Shown: one piece after another, positions 6,068-43,072 of the stretch | Numbering within the stretch: the stretch's first letter is position 1 | How the letters are laid out: the number at the start of each line of letters is the position of its first letter | DNA from: Actinomycetota bacterium | Lineage (GTDB): Bacteria; Actinomycetota; UBA4738; HRBIN12 | Reading direction: 5' to 3' | DNA length: 64,000 nt | Assembly: GCA_040882605.1 (NCBI GenBank) | Contig: JBBEAY010000023.1 | Span: 76,786-140,785, forward strand | Translations under genes and position numbers: made by a program | Notes under the pieces: model-generated | Database searches by the model: none | What the model was told of the DNA's origin: nothing | What the model saw: the letters and a program-made list of their open reading frames with translations, nothing else

Positions 6068-7176
6068 GCACGGTACGGGTGGTCGAACTGCGCCTGATCG
6101 GGTTGCCACTCGTGCGACCTTTCCGTACCAGCTTCGGCACTTCGACCGAGAAGGTTTGCATCGTGGTGCGGCTCGAGACCGATCGCGCGGAAGGATGGGG
6201 GGAATGCGTCGCCGACATCGGGCCGGGCTACAGCGAGGAGTTCAACGACGGCGCGTGGTTGGTGATGCGGGACCATCTCGTGCCCGCCCTGATGCGGGCC
6301 GGTGACATCGCGATCGACGATCTCGACCACGTGCTCGGGCATGTGCGAGGCAATCCGATGGCGAAGGCTGCGCTCGTCGACGCGTTCCTCGACGCCGAGC
6401 TCCGTGCCCGAGGCGTGTCGTTGGCGACCTGGTTGGGGGCCGATCGCGACCGGGTCGCCTGCGGCGTGTCGATCGGCATCGCCGACACTACCGAGGCCCT
6501 GCTCGAACAGGTCGGCGACTACCTGGCCGAGGGTTATCAGCGGATCAAGCTCAAGATCGAACCGGGCATCGACGTCGAGCGGGTCGCCGCCGTCCGAAGA
6601 GCCCATCCGGACATCGCGCTCAGCGTCGATGCGAACGCCGCGTACACGATCGAGGACATCGAAGTCTTCCGCGCGCTCGATGCCTACGACCTGCTCATGA
6701 TCGAGCAGCCGCTGCACCATGCCGACCTGGTTCGTCACGCGGAGCTGCAGCGGGCGATCACGAGCGACCTCTGCCTCGACGAGTCGATCCGCTCGGGGGC
6801 CGATGCCGCCGCCGCGATCGAGCTCGGCAGCTGTCGCATCGTGAACATCAAGCAGGGAAGGGTGGGAGGCGTGCCAGAAGCAAGGCGCGTGCATGACGTG
6901 TGCCTTGCCGCCGCCACGCCCGTCTGGTGCGGCGGCATGCTTGAGACCGGCATCGGACGAGCCCAGAACCTGGCCCTCGCTGCCATGGAAGGCTTCACGC
7001 TCGCGGGCGACACGAGTGCGAGTGCGCGGTACTTCCCCGACGACCTCACGGCGCCGTTCGTGATGGCCCCCGACGGCACGATGGCGGTCCCGCGAGGTCC
7101 GGGCATCGGGGTCACCCCGCGACCCGACCGGCTCATGGAAACGACGCTTCGCCTCGAGACGGTCGGATCGAGGTGA
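6064..7176 (+). CDS. enolase-superfamily o-succinylbenzoate synthase / N-succinylamino-acid racemase family protein
   Basis: KxK motif (YQRIKLKIEP), metal ligands (SVDANAAY, MIEQPL, LCLDES) and the second catalytic Lys (NIKQGRVGG). Confidence 0.9.
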   Translation: MSTVRVVELRLIGLPLVRPFRTSFGTSTEKVCIVVRLETDRAEGWGECVADIGPGYSEEFNDGAWLVMRDHLVPALMRAGDIAIDDLDHVLGHVRGNPMAKAALVDAFLDAELRARGVSLATWLGADRDRVACGVSIGIADTTEALLEQVGDYLAEGYQRIKLKIEPGIDVERVAAVRRAHPDIALSVDANAAYTIEDIEVFRALDAYDLLMIEQPLHHADLVRHAELQRAITSDLCLDESIRSGADAAAAIELGSCRIVNIKQGRVGGVPEARRVHDVCLAAATPVWCGGMLETGIGRAQNLALAAMEGFTLAGDTSASARYFPDDLTAPFVMAPDGTMAVPRGPGIGVTPRPDRLMETTLRLETVGSR

Positions 7177-7266
7177 AGCGCGCGTACTCCCGGGCGCCGA
7201 GGAAAGTGTGACAAGAAGCCGATCCCGATTTGACCGTCGGGAGGGGACCCCCGTATGGTGCGTCGT

Positions 7267-7304
7267 GAGAGACCGCTGGGGCCCCCGGGTTCCGGCGGTT
7301 TCTC
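7267..7304 (+). terminator. 10-bp hairpin downstream of the OSBS/NSAR gene (terminator or leader structure)
   Basis: GAGAGACCGC (7267-7276) pairs with GCGGTTTCTC (7295-7304, one G:U). A T-rich stretch GCTTTCT follows. Confidence 0.35.
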
Positions 7305-7472
7305 GCTTTCTGAGAGCCCTCATGCTCCGCGCCTCCATCTTCCCGACGTGCTTGAGCCGAGCCTCCTCAGGGGCGACCATACTCAGGCGCGCCGCCCGCA
7401 GCTTCTTGTTGGCTGCCCCGGTGGCGTACGGTCGCCGTACCGTTGCCGCGCGATGCGGACCTGAGGAGCGAG

Positions 7473-8033
7473 ATGAAGAAGCGAGTCGTGCAAGCGGGGG
7501 AGTTCGAGGTCGTCGACGACGACGGCAAGGTGCGTGTGCGCATCGGCTTGTCGAACGACGACGACCCCTTCCTCTCGCTGCTCGCGCCCGACGGTCAGGT
7601 GCGCATGCGCTTCGGACTCTCGGCTGACGGTGCGGCCGGACTCGCGGTCGGCGACGAGAACGGCAAGGTGCGCGCGACGGTGGGGCTATCGAGCGATGGA
7701 AGCGCCAGCCTCGCCTTCGGAGACAAGAACGGGCGCATCCGCGCGAAGTTCGGCCTCGCCCCCGAGGCCTCGCCGACGATGGGCATGCAGGTGACCGACG
7801 GCGAGTTGTCGCAGGTGTACTCGCTCGCCGAACAGGGTTCCCCGACGCTCGGGCTCTACGACCACGCGGGCAAGGTGCGCGTGCGACTGGGGCTCGCCGC
7901 CGAGGGCTCGCCGGTGCTGCGCTTGCTCGATCGAAACGGTGAGCTCCGGGCGATCGTGGGTCTGGCCGGCGACGGTTCGCCCTTCGTGCAGTTCCTCGAC
8001 GAAGCGAAAGAGCCGGGCTGGACGATGCGATGA
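7473..8033 (+). CDS. tandem-repeat protein (about seven 22-24 aa repeats), function unknown
   Basis: GAGGAG RBS 4 nt upstream of the ATG at 7473. Repeats follow the form D-x-(N/D)G-K/E-(V/I/L)R-x-x-(F/V/L)GL-x-x-(D/E)G-(S/A)-P/A-x-L. No signal peptide is apparent. The gene ends 10 nt before the next gene. Confidence 0.7.
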   Translation: MKKRVVQAGEFEVVDDDGKVRVRIGLSNDDDPFLSLLAPDGQVRMRFGLSADGAAGLAVGDENGKVRATVGLSSDGSASLAFGDKNGRIRAKFGLAPEASPTMGMQVTDGELSQVYSLAEQGSPTLGLYDHAGKVRVRLGLAAEGSPVLRLLDRNGELRAIVGLAGDGSPFVQFLDEAKEPGWTMR

Positions 8034-8043
8034 CCGGCCGGAT

Positions 8044-8553
8044 ATGACCGGTTGGTGGGCACTGGCCTTCGTGGTGCTGTGGCTGCTCGTCGTCGTGCTC
8101 TGCGTCGTGGTGATCGCGCTGGCCCGCCAGGTCGGCACCCTGCACCTTCGCCTCGGCCCTCGTGGGGCGCTCGAGATCGACGACGAGGGACCGGCGCTCG
8201 GCGAGCCGCTGCGAACGGTCGAAGCGGTCTCCGCCGACGGCGCCAAGGTGGCGCTCGGAGGGACCGGCCGCCCCCGGCTCGTGCTGTTCGCGTCGCAGAC
8301 GTGCGCCATCTGCCGCGAGGTGTCGCCTGGCATGCCCGCGGCAGCCGCGGCCGGCCGGCTCGATGCGATCGTGGTGCACGACCCTGAGGCCGAGAGCGCC
8401 TACGGCGTGCCGGGCACCCCGTTCGTGATCGTGCTCGACGAGCGGGGTGTGGTGCGCGCCAAGGGCACGGTGAACAACCTCGAGCAGGTCGAGGGGCTCG
8501 TCGACTCCGCCAACCGACGCATCACGGAGGATCGCCGGCAGTGGGCAAGCTGA
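8044..8553 (+). CDS. MauD-like membrane-anchored thioredoxin-fold protein
   Basis: N-terminal TM anchor (WWALAFVVLWLLVVVLCVVVIAL) and a CxxC motif in thioredoxin context (LVLFASQTCAICREV). The architecture matches methylamine utilization protein MauD. Confidence 0.75.
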   Translation: MTGWWALAFVVLWLLVVVLCVVVIALARQVGTLHLRLGPRGALEIDDEGPALGEPLRTVEAVSADGAKVALGGTGRPRLVLFASQTCAICREVSPGMPAAAAAGRLDAIVVHDPEAESAYGVPGTPFVIVLDERGVVRAKGTVNNLEQVEGLVDSANRRITEDRRQWAS

Positions 8554-9077
8554 CGTCGATCGAACGAGCGGAACGAACCCTTGCGACGCGCACCAGCCGC
8601 CGCAGCTTCCTGGGACGTGTGGGTCGCGGTGTGGTGGCGCTCGCGGGCGGTGGTCTCGTTGCGACCGCGCTCTCGCCCGACCGGGCCCAGGCTTACCACC
8701 TCTGTGGTCACACCTACACGACGGGGTCGTGCCCCCACCCCTTCGCGCCACTGTCCCGCACCGACCGGTACGGCTACCCGATGCACCCCGAGTACGGCTA
8801 CTCGGTCGACGATTCCGGTGACAGGTATGTCGACCCGTCGACCCAGACGCGCAGCAAGACGTGCGAGCAGACGGTGCCGCGCGAGTACCCGTTCAGCGGC
8901 TCCCCGCGCTACGGGGGCGGATGGACCAGATGCTGCAAGGGGCGTCTTCGCCACATCCAGGACTGCTGCTCACGCTCCGACATCCGCATCAACGGCGACT
9001 ACGCCGTTCGCGGATATTGCCCGCGTCCGCTCAAGGTCTTCTGCATCACGTACCGGGAGCTCAACAAGACGTGTTGA
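8541..9077 (+). CDS. Tat-exported, Cys-rich methylamine dehydrogenase light-chain (MauA)-like protein
   Basis: Twin-arginine motif TSRRSFLGRVG, ten Cys in the mature part, and segments GHTYTTGSCPHP, WTRCCKG, DCCSRSDIRINGD, GYCPRPLKVFCITY that resemble the MauA-family core (YRDCCG). The GTG start overlaps the preceding gene by 13 nt. Confidence 0.7.
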   Translation: MGKLTSIERAERTLATRTSRRSFLGRVGRGVVALAGGGLVATALSPDRAQAYHLCGHTYTTGSCPHPFAPLSRTDRYGYPMHPEYGYSVDDSGDRYVDPSTQTRSKTCEQTVPREYPFSGSPRYGGGWTRCCKGRLRHIQDCCSRSDIRINGDYAVRGYCPRPLKVFCITYRELNKTC

Positions 9078-9187
9078 CCGGCGCGCTGGGCGGCGCCTTG
9101 GGCGGCGACGCGCTCGCGGTGGCTCTGCTCGCCGTGCTCGTCGCCGCATCGGCGATCGCCGGATGGTCGGCGCTCTACGGCCCCTGA
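9071..9187 (+). CDS. candidate 38-aa hydrophobic micro-protein
   Basis: The GTG overlaps the MauA-like stop (GTGTTGA). The sequence VLTGALGGALGGDALAVALLAVLVAASAIAGWSALYGP has very high GC3. It fills the otherwise unexplained 120-nt gap and ends 9 nt before the next ATG. Confidence 0.4.
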   Translation: MLTGALGGALGGDALAVALLAVLVAASAIAGWSALYGP

Positions 9188-9196
9188 GGCCTGTCG

Positions 9197-10321
9197 ATGG
9201 TGGAGACCATCACCCCTGTCGTGTACGGGGGACGCCTCAGGTGGGCCGTGGCGCTCGCGCTGCACGTCGTGGGCGCGACGGCGACCGCCGCACTCTTCGG
9301 CGCCGGACTAGGTGTGCTCGGGGTGTTCCTCGAGGCGCCGTGGGGCAGGGCGGGCATGGCTGCCCTCGCCGCTGTGGCCGTCGTGTACACGTTCGGGGAG
9401 CTTCCTCGCGTGACCGCCGCCGTGCCGCAGCTCCGCCGCCAGGTGCCCGATTGGTGGCGAGGCTTCTTCTCGTGGCCGATCGCCGCCGCGCTGTACGGCG
9501 CCGGGCTCGGCATCGGGTTCTTCACCTTCCTGTCACACGGCACGTTGGTCGTGGTCTCCTTCGCTGCGCTCGCATCGGGCGACCCGCTCCTCGGTGCCGT
9601 GGTGGTTGGCGCCTTCGGGCTCACGCGAGGGCTCTCGGCCGCTCGTGCTGCCCATGTTCGTTCGCAGGAAGACTCGCGACGCCTGGTCGACAGGCTCGCA
9701 GCAGCACCCGAGCGCCGGCGAGCGATCGCGAACGGCGCGGCGTCGGCCGCAGTGGCCGTGCTCGCTTCGGCCCAGGCCGTGCGCGCCGGCGACGGATGGG
9801 CCTCGCTCGCGACGGCCGGCCTCGCGATCGCCTTCGCGTGGGCGGCCGCGTCGAAGGTGTTCGACGCGCAAGCCTGGCGCCGAACGCTCGCCGCACACGG
9901 GCTCGCGCGCAGCGTCGAGGGGGCAGCGACGTTCGCGGTTCCTGCGGCCGAGATCGCGGTGCCGTTGCTGGCCGCCTCCGGGCTGACGAGGGCCGCGGGC
10001 ATCTGGGCCCTGACCCTGTTGACCGTGCTCACCGCCGAAGCGCTGCGGGCCTGGCGCCGGTTCGGTCCGCAGGTGCCGTGCGGATGTTTCGGAGGACGCG
10101 AACCCGTCGCGCCACCCGTGCTGTTGTTGCGCAATGGGGGGCTCGCCGTCGTCGCGCTCGTGGTCACCATGCGCGAAGCGCCACAGCCTCTCCTGTCTTG
10201 GCCCGCGTGGCCGGGACCCGGCGAGGTGCTGCCGATGGCGCTGACCTTGGCCGGACTCGGCGTGGCAGGCTTCACGGCGTGGACGGCGGTCAGATGGCTG
10301 GGCCAGGGCAAGCGGGCGTGA
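9197..10321 (+). CDS. polytopic membrane protein with a C-terminal MauE/DoxX-like domain fused to an N-terminal 4-5 TM domain of unknown function
   Basis: The C-terminal half carries the MauE-type pattern, including PCGCFGG. The N-terminal half is hydrophobic and has no Cys. Confidence 0.8.
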   Translation: MVETITPVVYGGRLRWAVALALHVVGATATAALFGAGLGVLGVFLEAPWGRAGMAALAAVAVVYTFGELPRVTAAVPQLRRQVPDWWRGFFSWPIAAALYGAGLGIGFFTFLSHGTLVVVSFAALASGDPLLGAVVVGAFGLTRGLSAARAAHVRSQEDSRRLVDRLAAAPERRRAIANGAASAAVAVLASAQAVRAGDGWASLATAGLAIAFAWAAASKVFDAQAWRRTLAAHGLARSVEGAATFAVPAAEIAVPLLAASGLTRAAGIWALTLLTVLTAEALRAWRRFGPQVPCGCFGGREPVAPPVLLLRNGGLAVVALVVTMREAPQPLLSWPAWPGPGEVLPMALTLAGLGVAGFTAWTAVRWLGQGKRA

Positions 10322-10908
10322 CCGAACGATCGGTCGTGCCGTTCCTCGTCGGGGTGCTGCTCGTGCTCGCGGCGGTCATCGCCGTGGCTGCGCCGGGGTT
10401 CCACGGCGACATCGCAGACCCCAACGACACGAAAGGCGCGCTCGACGTGCAGCGTGTGCGCATCGACCACGAAGGCGGCACCGAGGTTACCGTGATCACG
10501 TTTGCCGAGTGGACCGCCGCCTCGATCTGGGATCGCGGTAACGCCTACGTCTTCCTCGATACCGAGGCCGACGCCGCGCCTGAGTATTTCGTGCTCGTGC
10601 GAAGCACCGGCGCCGAGCTGCAGGCGATGCTTTGGCGCGACCGGCGTGATCGGCGCGACGTGTACCTGCGCAAGGTCGCAGTTCGCCGCAAGTCGCCCGA
10701 CGGCGTGTCGGTCGCGCTGCCGATCAAGTCGTTGGACTTCGGGCCTTCACGCGATTCCTACTTCTGGTGGGCCACGACTAGCTTCACCGGAAGATCGTGC
10801 CGGCGGACGTGCCTCGACCGCGCTCCCGACGAGGGGTCCGTCGAGCAATGGCGCCCCGGTATGTCACCCAGCCCGCCCAGCCCATCACCGAGCGTCGCCG
10901 GGCCGTAA
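10318..10908 (+). CDS. membrane-anchored extracytoplasmic protein, unknown function
   Basis: The GTG start overlaps the upstream stop (GTGA). It has an N-terminal TM helix (VVPFLVGVLLVLAAVIAVAAP), a soluble domain and a Pro/Ser-rich tail. Only the 3-prime part of the long 8581-10908 ORF is taken as coding. Confidence 0.6.
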   Translation: MTERSVVPFLVGVLLVLAAVIAVAAPGFHGDIADPNDTKGALDVQRVRIDHEGGTEVTVITFAEWTAASIWDRGNAYVFLDTEADAAPEYFVLVRSTGAELQAMLWRDRRDRRDVYLRKVAVRRKSPDGVSVALPIKSLDFGPSRDSYFWWATTSFTGRSCRRTCLDRAPDEGSVEQWRPGMSPSPPSPSPSVAGP

Positions 10909-11235
10909 CGTTCCTGAGATCGCCGTCTCTTCGATCTCGAAGATCGAGGTGACTCGCACGAGCGCGGGTCCCGCAGGGAACTCGCTGAAACCGAACCCCG
11001 ATGGTGCGCACGGCGCCGGCGCTCCGAGGTCGACGCCCTCGATCGATGCGGCTGCGTCGGCTTCGCGGAAGTCGTGTATCGCGTACCACTCGCGGGCGCC
11101 AGCGCGCGTTTCGCCGGTCGTCCGCACGCCGGCGGCAGCGAACAGCCCACGAACGAGCGGGCGCAGCACGCGGCCCTCGAGACCGATATCGTGGCGCCCG
11201 GCCGGGGTCGTGTGTCCTCGTAGGCTACGCATCCG

Positions 11236-13275
11236 ATGGCATCGACCGACGAAGCGCTCGAGGGAGTCTTCGCGCGATGGCGTCGGCGCACGCAGGCGCC
11301 GGGTGTCGCTTGGGGGCTGGTCCGCGGCGGAGAGCTCGTCGCCGGCGGGGGCCTCGGCACGCTGAGGGTCGAACGAGACACGCGGCATACCCCGGACGTG
11401 GACAGCGTCTTCCGCATCGCGTCGATGACGAAGAGCTTCACCGGCGCGGCGATGATGACCCTGGTGGCCGCCGGCAGGATCGGCCTCGATGACCCCGTCG
11501 CGATGCACGTGCCCGAGCTCGAAGGGTGGCGCGGTCCCACGACTGACGGTCCGCCGCTCACCGTGCGCCACCTCGTGTCGATGGAATCGGGGCTGCCGAC
11601 CGACGACGCATGGGCCGATCGTCACATCGACCTCACCGACGAGCAGATGGACGCCCTGATCGCCACCGGCGCCGAGTTCGCCTGGACCCCCGGCGTGCGT
11701 TTCGAGTACTCGAACCTCGGGTGGGGTCTGGTCGGCAGGGTGATCGAGCGCGTCGCTGGGGTGCGCCCACAATCGCTCGTGTCGTCGGCCCTGCTGGAAC
11801 CTCTGGGCATGGCGCGGACGACGTGGGTGCGGCCCGCGTCGGGCGAGGTCGCGGAGCCCTATCGCCTGCAGGACGGTGAGTGGATGCATGAGGCCGACCC
11901 GCTCGGCGACGGCACCATCGCGCCGATGGGCGGCATCTGGACCACCGTGCGCGACCTGGCGCGTTGGGTGGGGGTCTTCACCGACGCGTTCCCGCCACGA
12001 AGCGAGCCCGACGACGGCCCGCTTCCACGTTGGGCCCGACGCGAGATGCAACAGCTCCGCCGCGTCGACGAGCTGGCGCGACTCCGGCCCTCGCCCAACG
12101 GGCCGTCACGGGTGGCCGTCACCGGCTACGGCATCGGCCTCGCCGTGCGCATCGACGAGCGTCTCGGCATCTCGGTCGGCCACAGCGGGGGCTTGCCGGG
12201 CTACGGCTCACACATGCGCTGGCTGCCCGAGCACGGCGTTGGGGTCATCGCGCTCGCGAACGTGACCTACGCCAACATGCAAGCGGCCTGCGTCGAGGCC
12301 CTCGAGGTGCTCGCCGATCTCGACGACCTCGGTCCGGCGCATGCCATCGAAGCGTCACCGGCGCTCTCTCGAGCAAGTATCGAGGCTACCGCGCTGCTCT
12401 CGTCCTGGAACGATGCCGATGCCGGCGCGATGTTCGCCGACAACGCCGTTCTCAACGAGTCGTTCGAGCGCCGCGCCGAAGATGCTGCCCGTTTGGCGTC
12501 GCGCCACGGTCCGCTCGAGGCCGCCCCCTCGCTCGAGCCCGAGACCCCGCTGCGTGGTTCCTTCACCGTGGGGGGTGGCGCGATGCGAGTCGAGATCGGG
12601 CTGAACCATGAGGGCCTGGTGCAGTGGCTCGACGTCGAGGATCGCACGGCGCCGTCGACAGCCCCGATCGTGGTCGACGAGGCGATGCTTCGCGAGGCGG
12701 AAGGCACCGCCTACGTGATCGTGCGGCCGGTCGCCGACCTCGCAGACGCGTTCGCGCGATGGCAAGGGGAAGCGCTCGACAAGCTCCGCGGTGCTCGGGC
12801 GATGGTGCCGAGCGCGCACGCCACGCTCAAGGCGTTCGGCTCGTCTGGCTCACCCCTGACCTCCGATGACGAGGCGCGCATCGTTGCCGCCGTCTCCGAC
12901 TGGGCGACCTCGCAGGCGCCGATCGAGATGCGTGCCGAGAGCCTCGGTGTCTTCGACGAAGGCGGAGCGATCCCCGTCGTGCGCCTCGTGCGCACGCCGA
13001 CGCTCGACTCGGCGATGAGCGATCTGTGGGCCAGGGTCGAGCGAGAGGCCCTTGTATCGGCATACAGCGACGAGATCGGCATCGAGGCGTGGATCGCGCA
13101 CCTTTCACTGGCGTACGTCCACGGGGCTTCCTCCCGGGCTTCGGGAGAGCTACTCGCCTGGGCCGCGAACGTCGACGTGGGGGCGGCCACCTGCCTCGCG
13201 GCTCAGGCCGAGGTCGTTGCCTATGACGCGGCAGGGGAACGGCGACTGGGCGTCTTCGGCCTCGGCGGAAGCTGA
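11236..13275 (+). CDS. serine hydrolase (class C beta-lactamase/esterase family) fused to a C-terminal 2H-phosphoesterase (LigT-like) domain
   Basis: SxxK (IASMTKSF), YxN (FEYSNLGWG) and HSG (GHSGGLPGY) motifs in the N-terminal 380 aa. Two HxT/S motifs (SAHATLKAFG and IAHLSLAYV) lie in the last 170 aa. Confidence 0.85.
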   Translation: MASTDEALEGVFARWRRRTQAPGVAWGLVRGGELVAGGGLGTLRVERDTRHTPDVDSVFRIASMTKSFTGAAMMTLVAAGRIGLDDPVAMHVPELEGWRGPTTDGPPLTVRHLVSMESGLPTDDAWADRHIDLTDEQMDALIATGAEFAWTPGVRFEYSNLGWGLVGRVIERVAGVRPQSLVSSALLEPLGMARTTWVRPASGEVAEPYRLQDGEWMHEADPLGDGTIAPMGGIWTTVRDLARWVGVFTDAFPPRSEPDDGPLPRWARREMQQLRRVDELARLRPSPNGPSRVAVTGYGIGLAVRIDERLGISVGHSGGLPGYGSHMRWLPEHGVGVIALANVTYANMQAACVEALEVLADLDDLGPAHAIEASPALSRASIEATALLSSWNDADAGAMFADNAVLNESFERRAEDAARLASRHGPLEAAPSLEPETPLRGSFTVGGGAMRVEIGLNHEGLVQWLDVEDRTAPSTAPIVVDEAMLREAEGTAYVIVRPVADLADAFARWQGEALDKLRGARAMVPSAHATLKAFGSSGSPLTSDDEARIVAAVSDWATSQAPIEMRAESLGVFDEGGAIPVVRLVRTPTLDSAMSDLWARVEREALVSAYSDEIGIEAWIAHLSLAYVHGASSRASGELLAWAANVDVGAATCLAAQAEVVAYDAAGERRLGVFGLGGS

Positions 13276-16384: not shown

Positions 16385-18085
16385 ATGTCGAAGGATTCCG
16401 ATGCGAACCCTGAACCGGGTTTGCGCTGGACGTTCCCGGTCTTCCGTTCCCTCGACGGCTACCGAAGGTCGTGGCTCGGCCGGGATCTGGTCGCCGGGAG
16501 CCTCATCGCCGCCGTGGCGATCCCGCTCAGCATGGGCATGGCCGAGGTGGCGGGCCTGCCGCCGGTCGTGGGGCTGTATAGCTGCGTGCTCCCTCTCGTC
16601 GCGTACGCGCTGCTCGGATCGAGCCGCCAGGTTGTCGTCGCGCTCGACGCCTCGACCGCCGCGATGCTCGCTGCCGCAGTGACTCCGCTCGCCGCAGGGC
16701 GGCCCGCGACCTACGCCGCGCTCGCGGGGCTCGTCGCCGTGTTGGTCGGCGTGATCCTGCTGGTGGCTGGTGTGCTCCGCCTCGGGTTCCTGGGGGACCT
16801 GCTCTCGCATCCCGTGCTGCTGGGGTATCAAGCGGGGCTCGCCGTCGTCGTCGCCGCTACCCAGCTTCCCAAGGTGCTCGGTTTCGATCTGAGGGCGAGC
16901 AGCAGCATCCAACAGCTCGGTGAGATCGCCCGCCGACTCGGCGAGACGAACGTGCCCACGCTGATCGTGGGTCTCGCATGCGTGGGAGTGATCGTCGGTG
17001 CACGCGTGTGGAGCGCCACCGTGCCGGGAGCACTCATCGCCGTGGCGCTCGCGACGGTGGCCGTCGATGTCTTCGACATGCAAACCCACGGTGTCGAGGT
17101 GCTCGGCGCACTCCCGTCGGGGTTGCCCGGCCTGACATGGCCTCCGTTCCGAGCGGAGGATCTCGCCTCCATCGCATTGCCGGCGGCGGGCATCGCACTG
17201 ATCGCCGCCGCCGACACGATCGTGTGCTCGCGGGTGTTCGCTGAACGCGGCGGCTACCGGGTCGACACGAACCGCGACCTCGTCGGGCTCGGAAGCGCCA
17301 ACCTCGCCTCGGGCCTGTCGGGCGGCATCTCGGTCAGCGCGAGTGCGGCCCGCACGGCCGTCGCGGAGTCGGTGGGGTCACGCTCGCAGATCGCAGGGGT
17401 GACGGCGGCCGTGCTGATGGCCGGGGTGTTGCTCTTCCTCACCGACCTGCTTCGGAGCCTGCCCATCGCGGCCCTTGCGGCCGTGGTGCTCGTGGCGGTG
17501 CTCCGGCTCATCGACCTCTCCGCGCTGGCGGCGCTGTGGCGGATCCGTCGCACCGAGTTGCTGATCGCCCTCGCGACGACCGTTGGCGCCATCATCGTCG
17601 GGCTGCTCGAGGGGATCGTGATCGCGGTGGTGCTGTCGATCCTCGACTTCATGAGACGCCGAGTCACACCTCACGAAGCCGTCATCGGGCTCGTCACTGA
17701 CCGGCAGGGGTTCTTCGACATCGATCGCTACCCCGGCGCGATCACCGAGCCGGGTCTCGTCGTGTACCGCTTCGACGGACCGCTCTTCTACGCCAACTCG
17801 GAGCGGTTCCTCGAGAGCGCGCGACGTCTCGTCGAGCAGGTCGACGTGAGGTGGTTCGTCGTCGACGCCTCGGCGATCTCCGATGTCGACGCTACCGCCG
17901 CGCGTATGCTCGTCGAGCTGCACCGGGAACTCGACGATCACGGGATCGCGCTGGCGCTGGTCGACCTCCTTGCCGGCGTCCGGGACATCCTTGAACGCGC
18001 CGACGTGCTCGAGCGCCTCGGCCCGCAGATGGTGTTCGACACGGCGGAAGACGCCGTCACGGCGTTTCGCGCGTCGGCCGATTGA
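16385..18085 (+). CDS. SulP-family anion (sulfate) permease with C-terminal STAS domain
   Basis: 566 aa with the typical SulP N-terminal motif (LVAGSLIAAVAIPLSMGMAEVAGLPPVVGLYS) and a STAS region (VVYRFDGPLFYANSERF). Confidence 0.93.
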   Translation: MSKDSDANPEPGLRWTFPVFRSLDGYRRSWLGRDLVAGSLIAAVAIPLSMGMAEVAGLPPVVGLYSCVLPLVAYALLGSSRQVVVALDASTAAMLAAAVTPLAAGRPATYAALAGLVAVLVGVILLVAGVLRLGFLGDLLSHPVLLGYQAGLAVVVAATQLPKVLGFDLRASSSIQQLGEIARRLGETNVPTLIVGLACVGVIVGARVWSATVPGALIAVALATVAVDVFDMQTHGVEVLGALPSGLPGLTWPPFRAEDLASIALPAAGIALIAAADTIVCSRVFAERGGYRVDTNRDLVGLGSANLASGLSGGISVSASAARTAVAESVGSRSQIAGVTAAVLMAGVLLFLTDLLRSLPIAALAAVVLVAVLRLIDLSALAALWRIRRTELLIALATTVGAIIVGLLEGIVIAVVLSILDFMRRRVTPHEAVIGLVTDRQGFFDIDRYPGAITEPGLVVYRFDGPLFYANSERFLESARRLVEQVDVRWFVVDASAISDVDATAARMLVELHRELDDHGIALALVDLLAGVRDILERADVLERLGPQMVFDTAEDAVTAFRASAD

Positions 18086-18471: not shown

Positions 18472-20403
18472 ATGGGGGAGAGAGCAACGCGTTCTATCAA
18501 GTCGGCCAAGGGCTCGGGCGGTCACCAGGTGCACGCGGCCGGGAGGTTCCGCTCACCAGGAAATCTGACCTTCCTCTGGCTCGGCGCGTCGGTGGTCGGC
18601 GTCGTGGCCGGTGCTCTCCTGTGGTTGGCGGGTATGGAGGGCGCCGCCGATCTGGCGTGGGCCGTGACGACGACCATCGCATCGGTGCCGCTGCTCATAG
18701 GGGTCGTGGCCGGCCTCGTCAAACGGACCGCGGGTGTGGATATCATCGCGGCGCTCGCGATCGTGGGCTCGCTGGCGCTCGGTGAGTACCTGGCGGGCGC
18801 CATCATCGCGCTCATGCTCGCGAGCGGACGGGCACTTGAGACCTTCGCCAATCGGCGGGCCCGACGCGATCTCTCGTCCTTGCTCGAGCGGGCACCCCGC
18901 ACGGTCACCCGGTACGAAGACGGCCGACTGGTGTCCCTGCCTGTCGGAGATGTTCACGAAGGGAACCTTCTCCTCGTCAAGTCGGGGGATGTGGTCCCCG
19001 TGGACGGCGTCGTGGAAGGATCTCCTGCGGTCCTCGATGACTCGGCGCTGTCCGGGGAATCACGGCCCGTGGTGCGCGATGCTGGAGCCCCGGTGAGTTC
19101 CGGGGCGGTGAACGCCGGTTCTGCATTCGATCTGCGAGCCACCGCGACAGCCGAGCGGAGCACGTACGCCGGCATCGTTCGGTTGGTGCGAGAGGCTGAG
19201 GCCTCCAAAGCTCCGGCCGCACGCCTCGCCGACCGCTACGCGGCGATCTTCGTGCCTGTGGCGTTGGCGCTCGCAGGCGCTGCATGGGCGGTGTCGGGCG
19301 ACCCCAGCAGAGCGCTCTCGGTGCTCGTGGTCGCGACCCCTTGTCCTCTGATCCTGGCGGTACCCGTTGCGATCGTGGCTGGCATCTCTCGCGCCGCCAG
19401 ACTCGGCATCATCGTCAAGGGCGGGGGCGCACTGGAGACACTGGGCCGCGGCCGAGTCCTGCTGTTCGACAAGACGGGAACGCTCACGATGGGGATGCCT
19501 CACGTGGCGGATGTTGAGGCCTTCGGTGAGATCGACCCGGCGGAGCTGCTCCGCTTGGCAGCCTCCCTGGACCAGGTCTCATCACACGTGTTCGCCGGGG
19601 CGATCGTCGCTGCCGCACACGAGCGAGAGCTCCCGCTCAGCTTCCCCGAGACCGTCGATGAGAGGCATGGAGCCGGGATCAGAGGCCATGTCGATGGGCG
19701 GGCGGTGGCGGTAGGCACGGCGGATCATGTGAGGGCCGAAACGCCCCTTCCGGCTCGTGCGCACGACGTGCGCGCCCGCTGCGAGCTCGATGGTTCCTCG
19801 TGCGCTTTCGTGGGTCTCGATGGCTCGGTGTCCGGCGCCATCGTGATCGACGACCCCGTTCGACCGGAGGCGCCAGGGGTGATCAGATCGCTGCGACGAG
19901 CGGGGATCGAGCGAGTGATCATGGTCACGGGAGACCACTCCGATGTGGCGCGGTCGGTCGCGGCCTCTCTGGGCGTCGACCAAGTCCTCTCCGAGCTCTC
20001 TCCCCAGGAGAAGATCGAGGCTGCTGAGGCCGAACGACGCGGCGGCCTCACGACGATCATGGTCGGTGACGGGATCAACGACGCGCCTGCCCTGGCTGCG
20101 GCTGATGTCGGGGTCGCGATGGGTGCGCGAGGTGCGACGGCTTCTTCCGAAGCCGCCGACGTCGTCCTCGTGGCGGACCGACTCGACCGGCTGGTCGACG
20201 CCGTGACCATCGCACAGCGGTCCAGGTCGATCGCCATCCAGAGCGCGGTCCTCGGCATGGGGCTCGCGTTCGGGTTCATGCTCCTCGGCGCCTTCGGGCT
20301 TTTCGGGCCCGTGGGAGGCGCTGTCGTGCAAGAGTTCATCGACGTAGCCGCCATCCTCAATGCGTTGCGAGCGCTGGGCGATCAGCGCCGATCTCGGAGG
20401 TAG
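18472..20403 (+). CDS. P1B-type heavy-metal P-type ATPase with a TPCP transmembrane motif and no N-terminal metal-binding domain
   Basis: Contains FDKTGTLT, VGDGINDAPAL and the TM motif VVATPCPLILAVP. No CxxC HMA domain and no C-terminal extension. Confidence 0.93.
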   Translation: MGERATRSIKSAKGSGGHQVHAAGRFRSPGNLTFLWLGASVVGVVAGALLWLAGMEGAADLAWAVTTTIASVPLLIGVVAGLVKRTAGVDIIAALAIVGSLALGEYLAGAIIALMLASGRALETFANRRARRDLSSLLERAPRTVTRYEDGRLVSLPVGDVHEGNLLLVKSGDVVPVDGVVEGSPAVLDDSALSGESRPVVRDAGAPVSSGAVNAGSAFDLRATATAERSTYAGIVRLVREAEASKAPAARLADRYAAIFVPVALALAGAAWAVSGDPSRALSVLVVATPCPLILAVPVAIVAGISRAARLGIIVKGGGALETLGRGRVLLFDKTGTLTMGMPHVADVEAFGEIDPAELLRLAASLDQVSSHVFAGAIVAAAHERELPLSFPETVDERHGAGIRGHVDGRAVAVGTADHVRAETPLPARAHDVRARCELDGSSCAFVGLDGSVSGAIVIDDPVRPEAPGVIRSLRRAGIERVIMVTGDHSDVARSVAASLGVDQVLSELSPQEKIEAAEAERRGGLTTIMVGDGINDAPALAAADVGVAMGARGATASSEAADVVLVADRLDRLVDAVTIAQRSRSIAIQSAVLGMGLAFGFMLLGAFGLFGPVGGAVVQEFIDVAAILNALRALGDQRRSRR

Positions 20404-20909: not shown

Positions 20910-21590
20910 ATGACACGGCTCGTACGTGATGTCATGAAGCCTGAGGCGATCTCGATCGGGCGGGGTGCCGCATTCTAAGGATGTCGCCCGGTTGATGTCC
21001 CATCACCGGCTGAGTGCCCTGCCGGTCGTCGACGACGACGAGCGTGTGGTCGGGGTCGTGTCAGAGACCGATCTCATCGTGCGTGACGAGACGTTCGGGC
21101 GACCGCATGTGGTCGAGGGTCGCAGGGTCCGATCGCTACGTCGGAAGGAGCCCAGGCCGTTGCGGTCCACGACCTGATGACAGCGCCCGCGATCACGATC
21201 GGACCCGAGGCGTGCCTGGCGGAGGCAGCCGGCCTGATGCGCAGACATAGGGCGAAGATCCTGCCCGTCTGCGACCCGAGCGGTCGTCTCCTCGGAGTGG
21301 TGTCGCGGTTGGATCTCGTTCGTGAGTTCCTGCGTGACGATGCAGAGATCGCCGAAGAAGTGACCCACGTGCTGCAGCGAGAGATGTCGATCCCTGCGAG
21401 TGCGGTCCACGCAACTGTGAACGAGGGTATCGTGACCCTCGAAGGCCAGGTCGAACGCTGTTCGCAGGTTCCGTCGATCGTCGACCGAGTCCGACGCATC
21501 GCTGGAACGGTCGAGGTAGTCACCAGGCTCAATCGGATCGAGGATGACACGCTCCTCGAGTTCGGCCCTCTTCCCAGGGTTGGATGGTGA
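20910..21590 (+). pseudogene. CBS-pair + BON domain protein interrupted by two frameshifts
   Basis: Three consecutive frames carry parts of one protein. MTRLVRDVMKPEAISIGRGAAF stops at 20976-20978. KDVARLMSHHRLSALPVVDDDERVVGVVSETDLI follows in frame +1. AVAVHDLMTAPAITIGPE...VTLEGQVE...VVTRL (second CBS plus BON) follows in the 21177 frame. Confidence 0.7.
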
Positions 21591-21609
21591 TCACCACGGA
21601 ACGAGCGGG

Positions 21610-24426
21610 GTGCACGTGGCGAACGAGAATCATCGCGTAGCTATCCCACCGTCCCCACCTGAGCCCTCCCTGACCCTGAAGGTCGCCGCCAGGCTCGAGA
21701 TCAAGGCGCTGATGCAACTCCTCCGGACACGGGCGGAGGGCCTGTCGGCGGAGGAAGCGGCAGCGGTCCTCCACCTCGTTGGTCCCAACCGTCTTCCCCA
21801 ACCGGCGGGCCGCGGTCTCATCGCGAAGCTGGTGTCTCAACTGACGCACTTCTTCGCGGTGATGCTCTGGCTGGCGTCCGTCCTCGCGATGATCGGCGGC
21901 ATGCCGCAGCTGGGGATCGCGATCGTCCTCGTCGTCCTCGTCAACGGTGTCTTCAGCTTCGCGCAGGAAGAACGGGCGGCAAAGGCAGCAGCGGCGATCG
22001 TGGAGCTGATGCCGGCGGTGGCCGACGTCATGCGAGACGGTCGCAGGTCTCGCGTCGACGCCGAGGCACTCGTGCCGGGCGACATCGTCCTCCTCGGGGA
22101 AGGCAACCGGATCTCGGCCGACGCCCGGCTGATCGCCACGGACGGGCTCTTGGTCGACACGTCGACCCTGACAGGGGAGTCGGTGCCCGTGGCGCGGACG
22201 GCCTCGGTACTAGACAGCAACCCGGAGCCATCGTCCGACGCCGAGAATCTGGTGTTCGCCGGGACGCACGTGGTCGCGGGATCCGCAGCGGCTATCGTGT
22301 TGCGAACCGGCTCTGCGACCGTGCTCGGGAGCATCGCGCAGATGACGGGGAACGTGGTCCGCCGACCCACCCCACTTCAGACGGACCTCCACCGCACGGT
22401 GAAGATCGTTGCTGCGTTCGCCGTCACCGCGGGCGTGCTCTTCTTCGGGGTGTCCCTCGGGCTCGGAACCCCCGTGCGGGACGGGTTCCTGTTCGCGGTC
22501 GGCGTGATCGTCGCGCTCGTGCCCGAAGGACTGTTGCCGACCGTCACGCTCGCGCTGGCCATGAGCGCGTTGCGGATGTCCCGCAGGGGAGCACTGGTTC
22601 GTCGATCCGAGTCGGTCGAGACCCTCGGGGCCACCACGGTCATCTGCTCCGACAAGACGGGGACGATGACGACGAACCAGATGACGGTTCGGGTGCTTGC
22701 GACGGAGATGGACCTGATCGAGGCCACCGGACTCGGTTGGCGACCGGGGGGTTCACTCTTCGCGCGGGGTCGCCCGGTCTCCGCGACTGATCAGGTCCGT
22801 CTGTCGCCGATCCTGCGGGCGGCCGCGCTGTGCGGTGACGCCGAGCTCGAGGAAGGGGAGGGCAAGTGGCGCTGCGTCGGGGACCCGACGGAGGGGGCGC
22901 TCGTCGCGTTCGCTCGGAAGGGAGGCGTCGGTCGCGAGGAGGAAGCAAGGCGCACTCCACGCGTTCGGAGCTTTCCCTTCGATTCGCGTCGGATGCGGAT
23001 GAGCACGCTGCACGCCCTGCCGGACGGCTCGTTCGAGCTCTTGGTAAAGGGAGCGCCAGAATCGGTGCTGCACGGATGCAGCCTCGAGCTCGTCGGCGAT
23101 CAGAACGAACCGATGGATGCCGCTCGCACCGCTGGCGTGCTCGCTCGAGTTGATGCGTTGTCAGGCCACGGCCTCCGCGTCTTGGCTCTTGCTAGGAGAG
23201 CGGTGACCCCCTCTGCCGCTCCCGGTTCCTCGGCGGATGCCGAGTGTTCGATGACGCTCCTTGGTCTCGTCGGGTTGGAGGATCCGATCCGCCCGGAGGT
23301 GCCTTCGGCGATAGCGCGCTGCCGTGAGGCGGGGATCAGGGTCGTGATGGTCACCGGGGACCATCCACACACCGCCTCGTCGGTTGCCCGGTCCGTGGGT
23401 ATCGACGGCGATCGTCTCCTGCTGGGCTCAGCACTTCCAGAGGACGATGACGAGCTTCGCGACGCCCTGGCCGATGTCCGTCTCGGCATCCTCGCGCGGA
23501 TCGGTCCAGAGCAGAAACTGCGGATCGCGGCGGCCTTGCAGCGAGCCGGCCACGTCGTCGCGATGACGGGCGACGGTGTGAACGACGCCCCGGCACTTCG
23601 GCAAGCCGACATCGGTGTCGCGATGGGCATCACGGGCACCGATGTCGCGAGGGAAGCTGCCGACCTGGTCCTGCTCGATGACAACTTCGCGCACATCGTC
23701 GAGGCCGTCGAGGAAGGTCGAGGCGCCTTCGACAACACGCGGCACTTCCTCACCTACCACCTCACGGACAACGTCGCGGAGCTCGCTCCCTTCGTCGTGT
23801 GGGCGCTCTCCGGCGGCAGGATCCCACTGCTGTTGACCGTGCTTCAGGTGCTTGCCCTCGACATCGGGACCGACCTGTTGCCCGCCTTGGCGCTGGGCGC
23901 TGAACGGCCGGCGCCCGGCACGATGCAGCGTCATCCGCGCAGCGGATTTGAACACCTGCTGGATCGATCCGTGCTTCTGCGTGCCTTTGGTTGGCTCGGG
24001 CCCATCGAGGCGATCGTGTCGATCGGTGCTGCCCTCGTGACTGCTGCGGCGTTGTTCGGGTGGAGTGTCGGTGAGTCCCTTCCCTCCACCGGACGGGAGT
24101 TGGCCACCATGAGCGGCGTTCTCTTCTCGTCCATCGTGTCGATGCAGATGGCCAACGCTTTCGGTTGCCGCAGCGACACGGCCTCGGCCCTCAGCGACGT
24201 CCTCGGGAACCGGCTGCTGCTCATCGCGGTCGGGGTAGAGGCGTTCGCGCTCGCCGGCTTCCTATACGTGCCGGTGATTTCGCGAGCGCTCGGGGGCGGG
24301 TCTCCGACGGCTGTCGGTTGGCTGATCGTGTTGACGACTCCTCTGATCCTGGCCGGCGCGGAAGAAGCGAGGAAGGCCTGGTCGCGCCGGTGCCACCGCG
24401 GACGCGGAAGGACCCACCTCCTCTAG
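21610..24426 (+). CDS. P2-type cation-transporting P-type ATPase (CtpF/Ca-ATPase-like)
   Basis: Contains ICSDKTGTMTTNQM, the TM4 PEGL motif and MTGDGVNDAPAL. The start is uncertain (GTG at 21610 or 21616, chosen to avoid overlap with the upstream BON domain). Confidence 0.9.
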   Translation: MHVANENHRVAIPPSPPEPSLTLKVAARLEIKALMQLLRTRAEGLSAEEAAAVLHLVGPNRLPQPAGRGLIAKLVSQLTHFFAVMLWLASVLAMIGGMPQLGIAIVLVVLVNGVFSFAQEERAAKAAAAIVELMPAVADVMRDGRRSRVDAEALVPGDIVLLGEGNRISADARLIATDGLLVDTSTLTGESVPVARTASVLDSNPEPSSDAENLVFAGTHVVAGSAAAIVLRTGSATVLGSIAQMTGNVVRRPTPLQTDLHRTVKIVAAFAVTAGVLFFGVSLGLGTPVRDGFLFAVGVIVALVPEGLLPTVTLALAMSALRMSRRGALVRRSESVETLGATTVICSDKTGTMTTNQMTVRVLATEMDLIEATGLGWRPGGSLFARGRPVSATDQVRLSPILRAAALCGDAELEEGEGKWRCVGDPTEGALVAFARKGGVGREEEARRTPRVRSFPFDSRRMRMSTLHALPDGSFELLVKGAPESVLHGCSLELVGDQNEPMDAARTAGVLARVDALSGHGLRVLALARRAVTPSAAPGSSADAECSMTLLGLVGLEDPIRPEVPSAIARCREAGIRVVMVTGDHPHTASSVARSVGIDGDRLLLGSALPEDDDELRDALADVRLGILARIGPEQKLRIAAALQRAGHVVAMTGDGVNDAPALRQADIGVAMGITGTDVAREAADLVLLDDNFAHIVEAVEEGRGAFDNTRHFLTYHLTDNVAELAPFVVWALSGGRIPLLLTVLQVLALDIGTDLLPALALGAERPAPGTMQRHPRSGFEHLLDRSVLLRAFGWLGPIEAIVSIGAALVTAAALFGWSVGESLPSTGRELATMSGVLFSSIVSMQMANAFGCRSDTASALSDVLGNRLLLIAVGVEAFALAGFLYVPVISRALGGGSPTAVGWLIVLTTPLILAGAEEARKAWSRRCHRGRGRTHLL

Positions 24427-26187: not shown

Positions 26188-26985
26188 ATGACACCGCGTG
26201 TCGCACGTCCCACTGTTCGACCTCGATCCGAGCTCAAGCGCGAGATGGGCTTGTAGACCGCCACCGCGATGGTGGTCGGCAACATGATCGGGTCCGGGGT
26301 GTTCCTGCTTCCTGCGGCTCTCGCAGGGGTCGCGCTCGTCTACGGCTCCAGCGCCCTGCTGGCGTGGGTGGTCACCGGCGTGGGAGCGATGCTCCTGGCC
26401 GGCGTGTTCGCGACGATGGGTCGCGCTTACCCGAAGACCGGCGGACCGTACGCATACGCACGCCGAGCGTTCGGCGACTTCGTCGGGTTCCAGACGGCGT
26501 GGGGCTACTGGATCGCCGCCTGGGTCGGCAACGCAGCGATCGCGACGGCGTTCGTCGGCTACACCACTGTGGTGTGGCCGGGGCTCGCTGACAGCAACCT
26601 CGCCATGGCGCTGCTCGCGGTCGGCTCGATCTGGCTGCTCACCTTCGTCAACATCCTGGGGGTGCGTGAGGGAGGTCGGGTCCAGGTTGCGACGACGATC
26701 CTGAAGTTCGTGCCGCTCGCCTTGATCGCCGTGATCGGCCTCTTCTCGATAGACACGGCTCACTTCACACCGTTCCTCGAAGCTACGGGGTCGACCGGAC
26801 GCAACGCCCTCACGTTGCTCGAGGGCATCACCGCGGCAGTGGGCTTGACCCTGTGGGCGTTCATCGGGCTCGAGTCGGCGACCGTGCCGGCCGAGGAGGT
26901 GAAAGATCCGGGGCGGACGATCCCCAGGGCGACGTACCTGGGAACGGCCGTCACGACCCTGATCTACATCGTCGCGACCTCCTGT
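26188..26985 (+). pseudogene. APC-family amino acid permease remnant (in-frame TAG plus 3-prime truncation)
   Basis: GAAGGAGGGA RBS and ATG at 26188. An in-frame TAG at 26254-26256 sits inside the conserved N-terminus (LKREMGL*TATAMVVGNMIGSGVFLLP). Permease-like sequence ends near TLIYIVAT, at about 7 TM instead of 12. Confidence 0.72.
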
Positions 26986-27064
26986 CCCCGACGATGCTCG
27001 ATCCTTTGCTCCGCGGTACGGAGTGGGGCAGGGTCTCTGATCGCTCCGAACGGGGGTGAGTTCG

Positions 27065-28414
27065 ATGTTCCGCGACCGTGTGGAGGCCGGGCGCCGCCTC
27101 GGCGAGCGGCTCAGGCAGTTCCGGGCCAGTTCGCCCGTGATCCTCGGGCTTCCCAGGGGAGGGGTGCCGGTCGCGGCGGAAGTGGCTCGGGCGCTTGAAG
27201 CGCCGCTGGACGTCCTCGTCGTCCGGAAGCTGGGCGTCCCCTGGCACCCCGAGCTCGGCTTCGGAGCGATCGGAGAGAGCGGCGTCACCGTCGTGGATGA
27301 AGAGGTCGTCGCGATGGCCCGGATCAGACCGTCGGAGATGGAGGACGTCATCCGTGCGGAAAGTGCGGAGCTCGAGCGGCGGGTTCGCCTCTACCGCGGA
27401 GATCGTTCACCCGTCCCGTTGCAGGGTCGCACCGTGATCGTCGTCGACGACGGCATCGCCACCGGAGTCACGGTCCGGGCGGCGATCGAGGTGTTGCGGC
27501 GCAGGGGCGCGGGCCACGTCGTGTTGGCGGTGCCGGCGGCGCCGCCGCGTGCCGTCGAGGCGCTGCGGTCCCTCGCTGACGAGATGGTCGTGCTCAAGTC
27601 GGAGGAGGCGTTCTTCGCGGTTGGCCAGTTCTACGACGAGTTCCCACAGGTCACGGATGAGGAAGTGACCCGGGTCCTGTCGGAGCCCGACGGCGAGCTC
27701 ACGTCGGTCGGGGCCGACGGCCCCTTCGTGCGGAGCTGCGACATCGACCTCGGTTCGGTCAGTCTCATGGGCGATCTGGCGATGCCTGCCCGGGCGACCG
27801 GTCTCGTCCTGTTCGCCCACGGCAGCGGCAGCAGTCGCCACAGCCCGAGGAACCGTTCGGTCGCGCGCAGACTGAACGAGGCGGGACTTGGGACGTTGCT
27901 CTTCGACCTGCTGAAGGCCGAGGAGGAACTCGACCGCTCGAACGTGTTCGATATCGGCCTCCTGGCGGATCGCCTCGTCGAGACGACTGGATGGCTTCGC
28001 CGTCAGCCGGAGGCTGCCGGCCTGCCGGTCGGCTACTTCGGGGCGAGCACCGGAGCCGCTGCCGCTCTGATCGCAGCCGCAAAGCTGAGCAACACGATCG
28101 GGGCCGTCGTCTCTCGGGGCGGGCGACCCGATCTGGCTGGATCCCGCCTCGCCGACGTGCGTGCGGCCACGCTGCTGATCGTCGGGGGCCAGGATCGAGT
28201 CGTCCTCGGGCTGAACAGGGACGCGCAGGCACTGCTCGGCGCCCCGAGCGAGCTGCAGGTCGTGCCCGGAGCGACGCACTTGTTCGAGGAGCCGGGCGCG
28301 CTTGAGCGGGTCGCCGTGCTCGCCGCCGGATGGTTCACGCGGTATCTAGCAGGCGTCGCGGCGGAACCTGTAGGGTCGGAAACTCCGATCCGCCTCCAGC
28401 TCGCCGATCCGTAG
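27065..28414 (+). CDS. phosphoribosyltransferase domain fused to dienelactone-hydrolase-like alpha/beta hydrolase (Rv0571c-like)
   Basis: PRPP motif VIVVDDGIATGVT, N-terminus FRDRVEAGRRLGERL, and a C-terminal hydrolase region LVLFAHGSGSSRHSPRN. Confidence 0.88.
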   Translation: MFRDRVEAGRRLGERLRQFRASSPVILGLPRGGVPVAAEVARALEAPLDVLVVRKLGVPWHPELGFGAIGESGVTVVDEEVVAMARIRPSEMEDVIRAESAELERRVRLYRGDRSPVPLQGRTVIVVDDGIATGVTVRAAIEVLRRRGAGHVVLAVPAAPPRAVEALRSLADEMVVLKSEEAFFAVGQFYDEFPQVTDEEVTRVLSEPDGELTSVGADGPFVRSCDIDLGSVSLMGDLAMPARATGLVLFAHGSGSSRHSPRNRSVARRLNEAGLGTLLFDLLKAEEELDRSNVFDIGLLADRLVETTGWLRRQPEAAGLPVGYFGASTGAAAALIAAAKLSNTIGAVVSRGGRPDLAGSRLADVRAATLLIVGGQDRVVLGLNRDAQALLGAPSELQVVPGATHLFEEPGALERVAVLAAGWFTRYLAGVAAEPVGSETPIRLQLADP

Positions 28415-38810: not shown

Positions 38811-38858
38811 GTGTCGTCTCTCTCGCTGGTGGGCGTGCCGATCGACGCCCCTTCCTTC

Positions 38859-42553: not shown

Positions 42554-42572
42554 CCTCGGTCACCTCTTGCCG

Positions 42573-43040: not shown

Positions 43041-43072
43041 AGCGATGAACTCCCTTTCTCGATCGGATGTGG

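Follow-up and report, generated by a model that had tools for sequence, protein, structure and literature searches.

What does an operon of the methylamine-utilization (mau) type do where no methylamine dehydrogenase (MADH) is encoded beside it? This question is raised by a stretch of 64,000 nt (hereafter the window) of the Actinomycetota contig JBBEAY010000023.1, which opens with the 3' end of gyrB and then gyrA, and whose G+C fraction is about 0.64-0.72. The original prediction described there, at positions 7473-10908 of the forward strand, six tightly coupled open reading frames (ORFs): a repeat protein (g1), a membrane-anchored thioredoxin-fold protein (g2), a cysteine-rich protein with a twin-arginine translocation (Tat) signal (g3), a hydrophobic micro-ORF, a MauE-like membrane protein (g5) and an anchored protein (g6). 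These ORFs, their coordinates and their tight junctions were recovered as described, consecutively in a frame of very high third-position G+C, the successive junctions from g1 to g6 being +10, -13, -7, +9 and -4 nt. The count of genes is another matter. The micro-ORF and g5 appear to form a single gene, interrupted by one conserved TGA that is probably read as selenocysteine (Sec, U). The operon as a whole would produce and mature one secreted client protein by means of a membrane relay that contains this Sec, an explanation to which a probability of roughly 60% is given.

The micro-ORF and g5 share the same frame and are separated by this one TGA and by the codons GGC CTG TCG, which precede the ATG called as the start of g5. 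The homologous loci fall into two subfamilies. In subfamily 1, the TGA is present in the window itself and in 84 of the 84 other loci that reach the site, within the consensus ...[YWFH]-G-P-TGA-G-[LFM]-S-M-[VA]-E-[TS]-I... In subfamily 2, found in metagenome-assembled genomes (MAGs) of the Solirubrobacterales type, the genes are uninterrupted, read ...G-A-W-S-P-C-G-[LF]-S-M-[VL]-[ED]-T... and carry TGC or TGT at the homologous codon. These Cys-form genes begin at a GTG that overlaps the stop codon of the Cys-rich gene, and the micro-ORF of the window begins likewise (GTGTTGA). The common frame, this type of start and the alignment with the Cys forms argue that the micro-ORF is not a separate gene, as originally proposed, and that it corresponds to the first transmembrane helix (TM1) of the membrane protein. 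The TGA would then replace the single conserved cysteine of the N-terminal domain, a position which is the sole conserved redox residue of this domain. The clade of the window (nt 9071-9115; loci L007-L019) carries in addition a Gly/Ala-rich insertion of 9-13 residues (GALGGALGGDA) at the N-terminus of TM1; in the other TGA-form loci, which have no such insertion, the segment upstream of the TGA is about 25 codons long.

The three codons that follow the TGA are informative. Among 68 distinct sequences they conform to GGN-CTN-TCG, with variation almost restricted to third positions; a few exceptional changes convert Leu into Phe or Met, and Phe is seen at the same position in the Cys forms. Since this variation is nearly confined to third positions, the segment reads as a translated peptide and not as an untranslated spacer. 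Two adjacent hairpins, H1 and H2, lie immediately downstream and constitute a candidate Sec insertion sequence (SECIS), with loops beginning 14 and 32 nt after the UGA. In the window, the 57 nt from the TGA on have a minimum free energy of -27.6 kcal/mol (z -2.46). In the alignment, 97% of the hairpin cells are paired, against 35-64% for all slid controls. Compensatory changes are visible in H2, with an exchange of CG and GC at the closing pair (21 sequences) and CG, UG or UA at the next one. The same region is constrained at synonymous sites. Indeed, when only codons with an amino acid conserved to 95% or more are considered, third-position identity reaches 0.95-1.0 for six of the eight codons inside the interval +9..+45, the exceptions being the two Val codons of the loops, and stays at 0.35-0.68 for six of the seven codons outside it.

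Genes for bacterial selenoproteins are routinely recognized by a UGA/Cys pair, by coding conservation on its flanks and by a downstream stem-loop. In the present family, an in-frame UGA is aligned with Cys, conservation of the coding type extends on both sides of it and a conserved structure follows. The combination of these three features points to a probable selenoprotein gene, in which the UGA has a good chance of encoding Sec. Since TGA ends 29 of 46 ORFs in the window and is its most frequent ordinary stop, a reassignment of the genetic code was rejected; g3 too ends in TGA. A search of about 1 Mb of loci for other TGA-joined ORF pairs with a coding signal gave ordinary neighboring genes only.

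Several observations weigh against this interpretation, and many of them favor its best-placed competitor. In this alternative, an ancestral Cys codon would have become a TGA, the gene would be split into a 38-residue TM1 peptide and a 374-residue part reinitiated at the ATG in position 9197 by translational coupling, and the domain would work without its Cys. The ATG lies 9 nt after the TGA, which forms with the next two nucleotides (TGA+GG) a GAGG motif at Shine-Dalgarno distance, and termination-reinitiation is therefore a workable alternative. H1 sequesters this ATG, as in some coupled genes, and gene callers predict two genes. The window and about 1 Mb of DNA, taken from 6-10 kb on either side of the operons, yielded neither a tRNA-Sec with ARAGORN nor a SelD by tblastn with an E. 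coli SelD query, a result that says little on the whole genomes. The hairpin region matches no SECIS family of Rfam. H1 is invariant and carries no covariation information, and its sequence also occurs in three of four Cys-form metagenome matches; in the first four Cys-form loci examined, on the other hand, the hairpin does not form. The covariation of H2 traces largely to one clade. Sec and Cys do not interchange inside subfamily 1, no Cys variant being found in the examined loci or in a pattern scan of Joint Genome Institute (JGI) metagenomes, which returned only subfamily-2 Cys forms when non-TGA variants were sought at this site.

Three features are difficult to accommodate in a split gene. 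The G-L-S spacer would be untranslated, yet it is conserved at the amino-acid level, varies at third positions and matches the G-[LF]-S of the Cys forms. The synonymous sites of H2, located 16-35 nt into the downstream ORF, are conserved, and reinitiation needs no such element. Finally, the domain would have lost its sole conserved redox residue, yet strong purifying selection acts on it in over 80 species. A split gene without Sec is thus considered unlikely, and the decoding of the UGA as Sec is retained as the preferred reading.

General background on bacterial selenoproteins can be found in PMC13449736 and PMC13188914. Like the known examples SO_0444, YeeE/YedE and MerT-like (PMC13188914, Table 1), the gene described here combines an in-frame UGA matched by Cys, a candidate SECIS stem-loop directly 3' and a redox context. 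Its candidate Sec, unlike theirs, belongs to a G-P-U-G motif that closes a transmembrane helix. Nothing with this motif, with a MauE domain or with such a context appears among the 119 prokaryotic selenoprotein families inventoried in 2026 (PMC13188914). The deep-Sep and BSepDB papers make no mention of MauE or methylamine-utilization proteins, and no model of NCBIfam release 20 matches the Cys forms or the protein in which U is replaced by C. The conserved UGA/Cys pair probably marks a new family of membrane selenoproteins in soil Actinomycetota that are abundant and uncultured.

The other end of the membrane protein has a clear identity. Residues 204-324 of g5 match the MauE family PF07291 (E 4.8e-20; 72.6 bits for a gathering score of 27 bits) over positions 7-126 of the 128 positions of the profile, which confirms its description as MauE-like, and the NCBI name given to its homologues is 'MauE/DoxX family redox-associated membrane protein'. 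No relative of the first 200 residues or so of g5, which belong to the N-terminal domain, was found in Pfam, NCBIfam or the PDB. An AlphaFold2 (AF2) model of residues 43-416, that is to say the 374-residue part, was obtained with a predicted local distance difference test (pLDDT) of 86.3 and a predicted template modeling score (pTM) of 0.80; compared to the PDB with Foldseek, it revealed no analogue (best E 0.6, TM below 0.21).

Polytopic membrane thiol-disulfide transporters of the CcdA/DsbD type possess a Pro-Cys motif in TM1 and an extracytoplasmic thioredoxin-like partner. The S-P-C-G and G-P-U-G sequences of TM1 resemble them at the motif level only, and the single conserved Cys or Sec found here differs from their two transmembrane cysteines. 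Membership of this group (PF02683/PF13386) was rejected: neither the N-terminal domain with U replaced by C nor the Cys forms gave a Pfam match, and the PDB-profile and fold searches were negative as well.

The MauD-like character of g2, also predicted initially, holds at the level of the family and not at that of the equivalog. The TIGR02661 model of MauD is matched with an E value of 1.4e-22, and the CAIC motif and the anchor are present; Pfam Thioredoxin_3 gives a weak match (E 2e-4). Because the TIGR02661 score of 80.1 bits is far below the curated cut-off of 188.6 bits, g2 is classed as MauD-like rather than as an orthologue of MauD. The absence of partners announced for this locus was borne out. 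No MauB (PF06433), MauG (PF03150) or amicyanin-type gene was detected among 51 ORFs scanned across the window, none adjoins the operon, and six homologous neighborhoods annotated with Pfam likewise contained none of these genes. What the window encodes is an orphan operon of the MauD/MauE type and not a methylamine dehydrogenase system. The window also encodes, about 23 kb away, a multicopper oxidase that has a supplementary cupredoxin domain at its N-terminus (33516-34877, reverse strand; Cu-oxidase_3, Cu-oxidase_2, Cupredoxin_1); this protein contains cupredoxin and is not an amicyanin.

A scan of one genome per species detected relatives of g3 in 580 genomes or more; the 80 best are all MAGs of uncultured Actinomycetota, mostly from soil surveys. 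Synteny was compared by tblastn with the six window proteins in 86 subfamily-1 loci, of which 80 come from these species genomes. The order g1-g2-g3-membrane gene-g6 is kept in essentially every subfamily-1 locus where the contig is long enough, and the gene order first described for the window thus extends to its relatives. Of 89 loci, 80 carry g1 upstream of g2, and this gene is absent in L003 and L004; among the loci of sufficient length, 67 keep g6 downstream. In several lineages, as in the window, a few genes separate gyrBA from the operon downstream of it, and in another lineage the context of the operon is unrelated; it behaves therefore as a self-contained module. Two loci, L053 (CAWJVX010000007.1) and L054 (JBHGAT010000148.1), labelled Gemmatimonadales and 'Candidatus Velamenicoccus archaeovorus', carry the full operon with a g3 that is 70% identical to that of the window; mis-binning is a likely origin of these labels, and horizontal transfer a less likely one.

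Gene fusions also link these proteins. In the Cys-form locus L088, MauE, MauD and the Cys-rich protein constitute a single ORF in which the twin-arginine segment is internal, and the protein with the C-domain (the Cys form of the U-domain) comes next. The same triple fusion is found in P0135. In L089, a MauE-MauD fusion of 285 residues lies beside a separate Cys-rich protein of 178 residues and the C-domain protein. In the subfamily of the window, it is to the U-domain that MauE is fused. On the basis of these fusions, the Cys-rich client, the CxxC thioredoxin, the MauE C-x-C domain and the U/C domain always travel together. The Cys-form lineages also encode, after the C-domain or as its C-terminal extension, a repeat-rich extracytoplasmic protein with a faint match to beta-propeller repeats (L088, 8657-9529; L089, 8866-9519; C-termini of P0392, P0395 and P0398), which is unrelated to g6 of the window.

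The presumed client, g3, proved to be the Tat-signal protein with ten cysteines and a single tryptophan that had been described, and its family comprises 577 clusters at E<=1e-3, the members listed being 67-86% identical. Ten Cys, W128, D141-C-C, Y159-C160 and a C-G-H are invariant in this family and a C-P-H is widely conserved. No Pfam or NCBIfam family corresponds to it. Many of the database proteins that match g3 are frameshifted read-through chimeras across g2, g3 and g5, derived from error-prone assemblies (P0128, P0136, P0141, P0183, P0191, P0243); one of them shows W at the position of the TGA, and they are unfit as evidence of fusion.

The arrangement has a precedent in the mau cluster. 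A role in the formation of the disulfides of the MADH light chain of Paracoccus denitrificans has been proposed for MauE and MauD (van der Palen et al. 1997, as cited in PMC7794033). In both cases, a MauE-family C-x-C domain and an anchored CxxC thioredoxin-like protein accompany a small Cys-rich protein with a Tat signal. The operon differs by the lack of MauB, MauG, MauC or any other mau gene in the window and neighborhoods scanned, by a client with one Trp that is not detectably MauA, by a g2 far from the MauD equivalog and by the fusion of MauE to an extra polytopic domain with the UGA/Cys site. A second parallel is offered by Streptomyces genomes in which orphan mauE and mauD genes, with no other mau gene, lie beside genes for precursors with at least eight Cys (decRiPPter candidates; PMC7794033). 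The association of an actinobacterial mauE, with or without mauD, and an adjoining Cys-rich product is common to the two situations, likened here by description. Besides these, the operon has g1, g6 and a membrane domain of the U/C type. The Streptomyces precursors were proposed to yield peptides made on ribosomes and modified after translation (RiPPs); for g3 a RiPP precursor was rejected because it is a Tat protein of 178 residues belonging to a conserved family and conserved from end to end.

Since the four functions always travel together, a dedicated extracytoplasmic relay serving the ten-cysteine client appears as the most economical reading. In this mechanism, g3 would be the client, a member of a new family targeted by Tat. 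The membrane protein would be a single product of 416 residues, whose first helix ends in G-P-U-G with a Sec inserted at the UGA under the direction of the two hairpins, the sister lineages using Cys at this position. Together with g2, the C-x-C of its MauE domain would form a dedicated membrane thiol/selenol-disulfide relay, able to build or to repair the disulfides of g3 after export. We infer in this way the decoding of the UGA, the direction and partners of the relay and the role of g3 as its client. The redox mechanism is drawn by analogy with the MauE and MauD families, a point that also weighs against the proposed explanation.

The original prediction had gone further and recognized in g3 the core pattern of MauA, the light chain that carries the tryptophan tryptophylquinone (TTQ) cofactor of MADH. 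A very divergent relative of this light chain, carrying another Trp-derived cofactor (Cys-Trp or Trp-Tyr) as a stand-alone quinoprotein, would have the Tat signal and the MauD/MauE partners in its favor, as well as a series of collinear motifs. Thus, C-x7-C-P-P, W57-x3-C, D76-C77-C78 and C121 of MauA find parallels in C-x8-C-P-x-P, the invariant W128-x2-C and D141-C-C, and C168 of g3. W108-C109 of MauA has as its counterpart the invariant Y159-C160, and g3 offers a single Trp where W57 and W108 of MauA form TTQ. It also has ten invariant Cys where MauA has twelve, engaged in six disulfides, and an insertion of 55-75 residues relative to MauA. Profile searches, which the original prediction had itself designated as able to overturn the relation, came out negative. 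PF02975 matches neither g3 nor its divergent relatives P0121, P0130 and P0135, even at lenient thresholds. TIGR02659 aligns to residues 6-40 of g3 only, that is to say the signal peptide (E 0.0024). A g3-family profile retrieved from the PDB no light chain of MADH or of aromatic amine dehydrogenase (AADH) at E<=10, and hhalign gave a probability of 0.6% for its comparison with MauA of P. denitrificans, a reference checked to be identical to 2bbk_L. The AF2 model of g3, built from 25 close homologues, is unusable (pLDDT 49.6) and its Foldseek matches are noise. In addition, no maturase of the MauG, LodB or QhpD type is encoded in any neighborhood examined. The 'MauA-like' label is thus not supported by profile comparison: g3 represents a large, highly conserved and unnamed family, the motif parallels being a lead and not evidence of membership, and a divergent TTQ light chain is decidedly unlikely.

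Metal handling was also envisaged. In this case, g3 would be a Cu or Fe-S metalloprotein exported by Tat, a pathway whose substrates usually fold or receive their cofactor in the cytoplasm, and the U/C-x3-M site of TM1 would serve in metal binding or transport. The invariant C-G-H and the widely conserved C-P-H of g3 are compatible with this idea, as is the invariant Met of the membrane motif [C/U]-G-[LF]-S-M, and membrane metal transporters exist among known selenoproteins (SO_0444 Cu/Zn efflux, E1-E2 ATPase, MerT-like; PMC13188914). On the other side, a portion of subfamily 2 has Ala instead of H66 in g3, the N-terminal domain of the membrane protein has no other conserved Cys, His or Met ligand, no metallochaperone gene belongs to the conserved core, and the obligatory partners, MauD-like and MauE, are of thiol-redox families. 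This makes metal handling quite improbable. Lastly, a combined version, in which the new membrane selenoprotein family would serve an extremely diverged MauA relative with a Trp-Tyr or Cys-Trp cross-link made without MauG, is the most doubtful of all.

If the UGA does encode Sec, a membrane-embedded family widespread in soil Actinomycetota is added to the bacterial selenoproteome. The genomes of this family are all MAGs, and annotation splits the gene in two. The use of selenium would moreover be tied to the maturation of extracytoplasmic proteins, in a lineage of high G+C content whose principal stop is UGA. Regardless of Sec, the operon offers a compact module uniting a client, the Cys-rich Tat protein, with its putative machinery, namely a MauD-like protein, MauE and a new U/C domain. 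Through such a module, what MauE and MauD do biochemically apart from methylamine metabolism, long a matter of doubt, becomes open to experiment. A practical warning follows for annotators: a short hydrophobic ORF with a TGA stop just 5' of a membrane protein gene deserves a check for read-through.

Table 1. Coordinates of the operon, of its candidate Sec elements and of other features (window positions unless a locus is named).
Feature	Position	Strand	Description
Promoter candidate	7230..7259	+	sigma-70-like, TTGACC-18-TATGGT; consensus match only; within the 296-nt gap 5' of g1
g1	7473..8033	+	186 aa; seven 23-aa repeats (G-K-V-R-x-x-x-G-L...D-G-S-P); without signal peptide
g2	8044..8553	+	169 aa; membrane-anchored thioredoxin-fold, MauD-like; hydrophobic N-terminal anchor; CAIC at nt 8302-8313
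g3	8541..9077	+	178 aa; Tat motif SRRSFLG (nt 8595-8615); 10 Cys; one Trp (W128)
Micro-ORF	9071-9187	+	38 codons, hydrophobic; putative TM1
Full membrane-protein gene	9071..10321	+	416 residues: TM1, UGA (candidate Sec39), novel multi-helix domain, C-terminal MauE
In-frame TGA	9185..9187	+	candidate Sec codon (...YGP-U-GLSMVETI...); conserved UGA/Cys pair
Candidate SECIS	9196..9231	+	H1 and H2, side by side 3' of the UGA
H1	9196-9211	+	GATGGT-GGAG-ACCATC
H2	9213-9231	+	CCCCTGT-CGTGT-ACGGGGG
g5	9197-10321	+	374 aa; PCGCFGG at residues 294-300
MauE domain	9806..10168	+	PF07291; P-C-G-C-F-G-G at nt 10076-10096
g6	10318..10908	+	196 aa; N-terminal anchor; GTGA start overlaps the membrane-gene stop
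Rrf2 regulator	38367-38810	-	
ABC-2 permease	38859-39707	-	
ABC ATPase	39698-40447	-	
nosD	40407-42293	-	
nosZ-like	43073-45178	-	nos_propeller and cupredoxin
Fusion ORF, locus L088	6670-8007		MauE-MauD-Cys-rich, 445 aa; Solirubrobacterales-type MAG
Fusion ORF, locus L089	6579-7436		MauE-MauD; Solirubrobacterales-type MAG
Fusion ORF, P0135			MauE-MauD-Cys-rich; Solirubrobacterales-type MAG; triple fusions 445-453 aa

The promoter candidate upstream of g1 is the sole promoter-like site in the interval 7100-11300, where 0.1 is expected by shuffling. Profile searches assign no Pfam or NCBIfam family to g1, which shows weak similarity to beta-hairpin repeat proteins of the PDB (E 0.005), and g6 has neither a Pfam or NCBIfam family nor a structure match. 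Downstream of the operon, the window contains a SulP/STAS transporter (16385-18085), whose gene also comes after the operon in L005; two P-type ATPases (18472-20403 and 21544-24426, forward strand) come close together after this transporter. The reverse strand carries, at 38367-45178, a nitrous-oxide reductase cluster that is not syntenic with the operon in the other loci. Finally, in the interval 26269-28414 (forward strand), an amino-acid permease ORF matches only about the first 237 of the 427 profile positions and overlaps the start of an ORF with a phosphoribosyltransferase domain; this may be explained by a pseudogene, by a frameshift or by faulty assembly.

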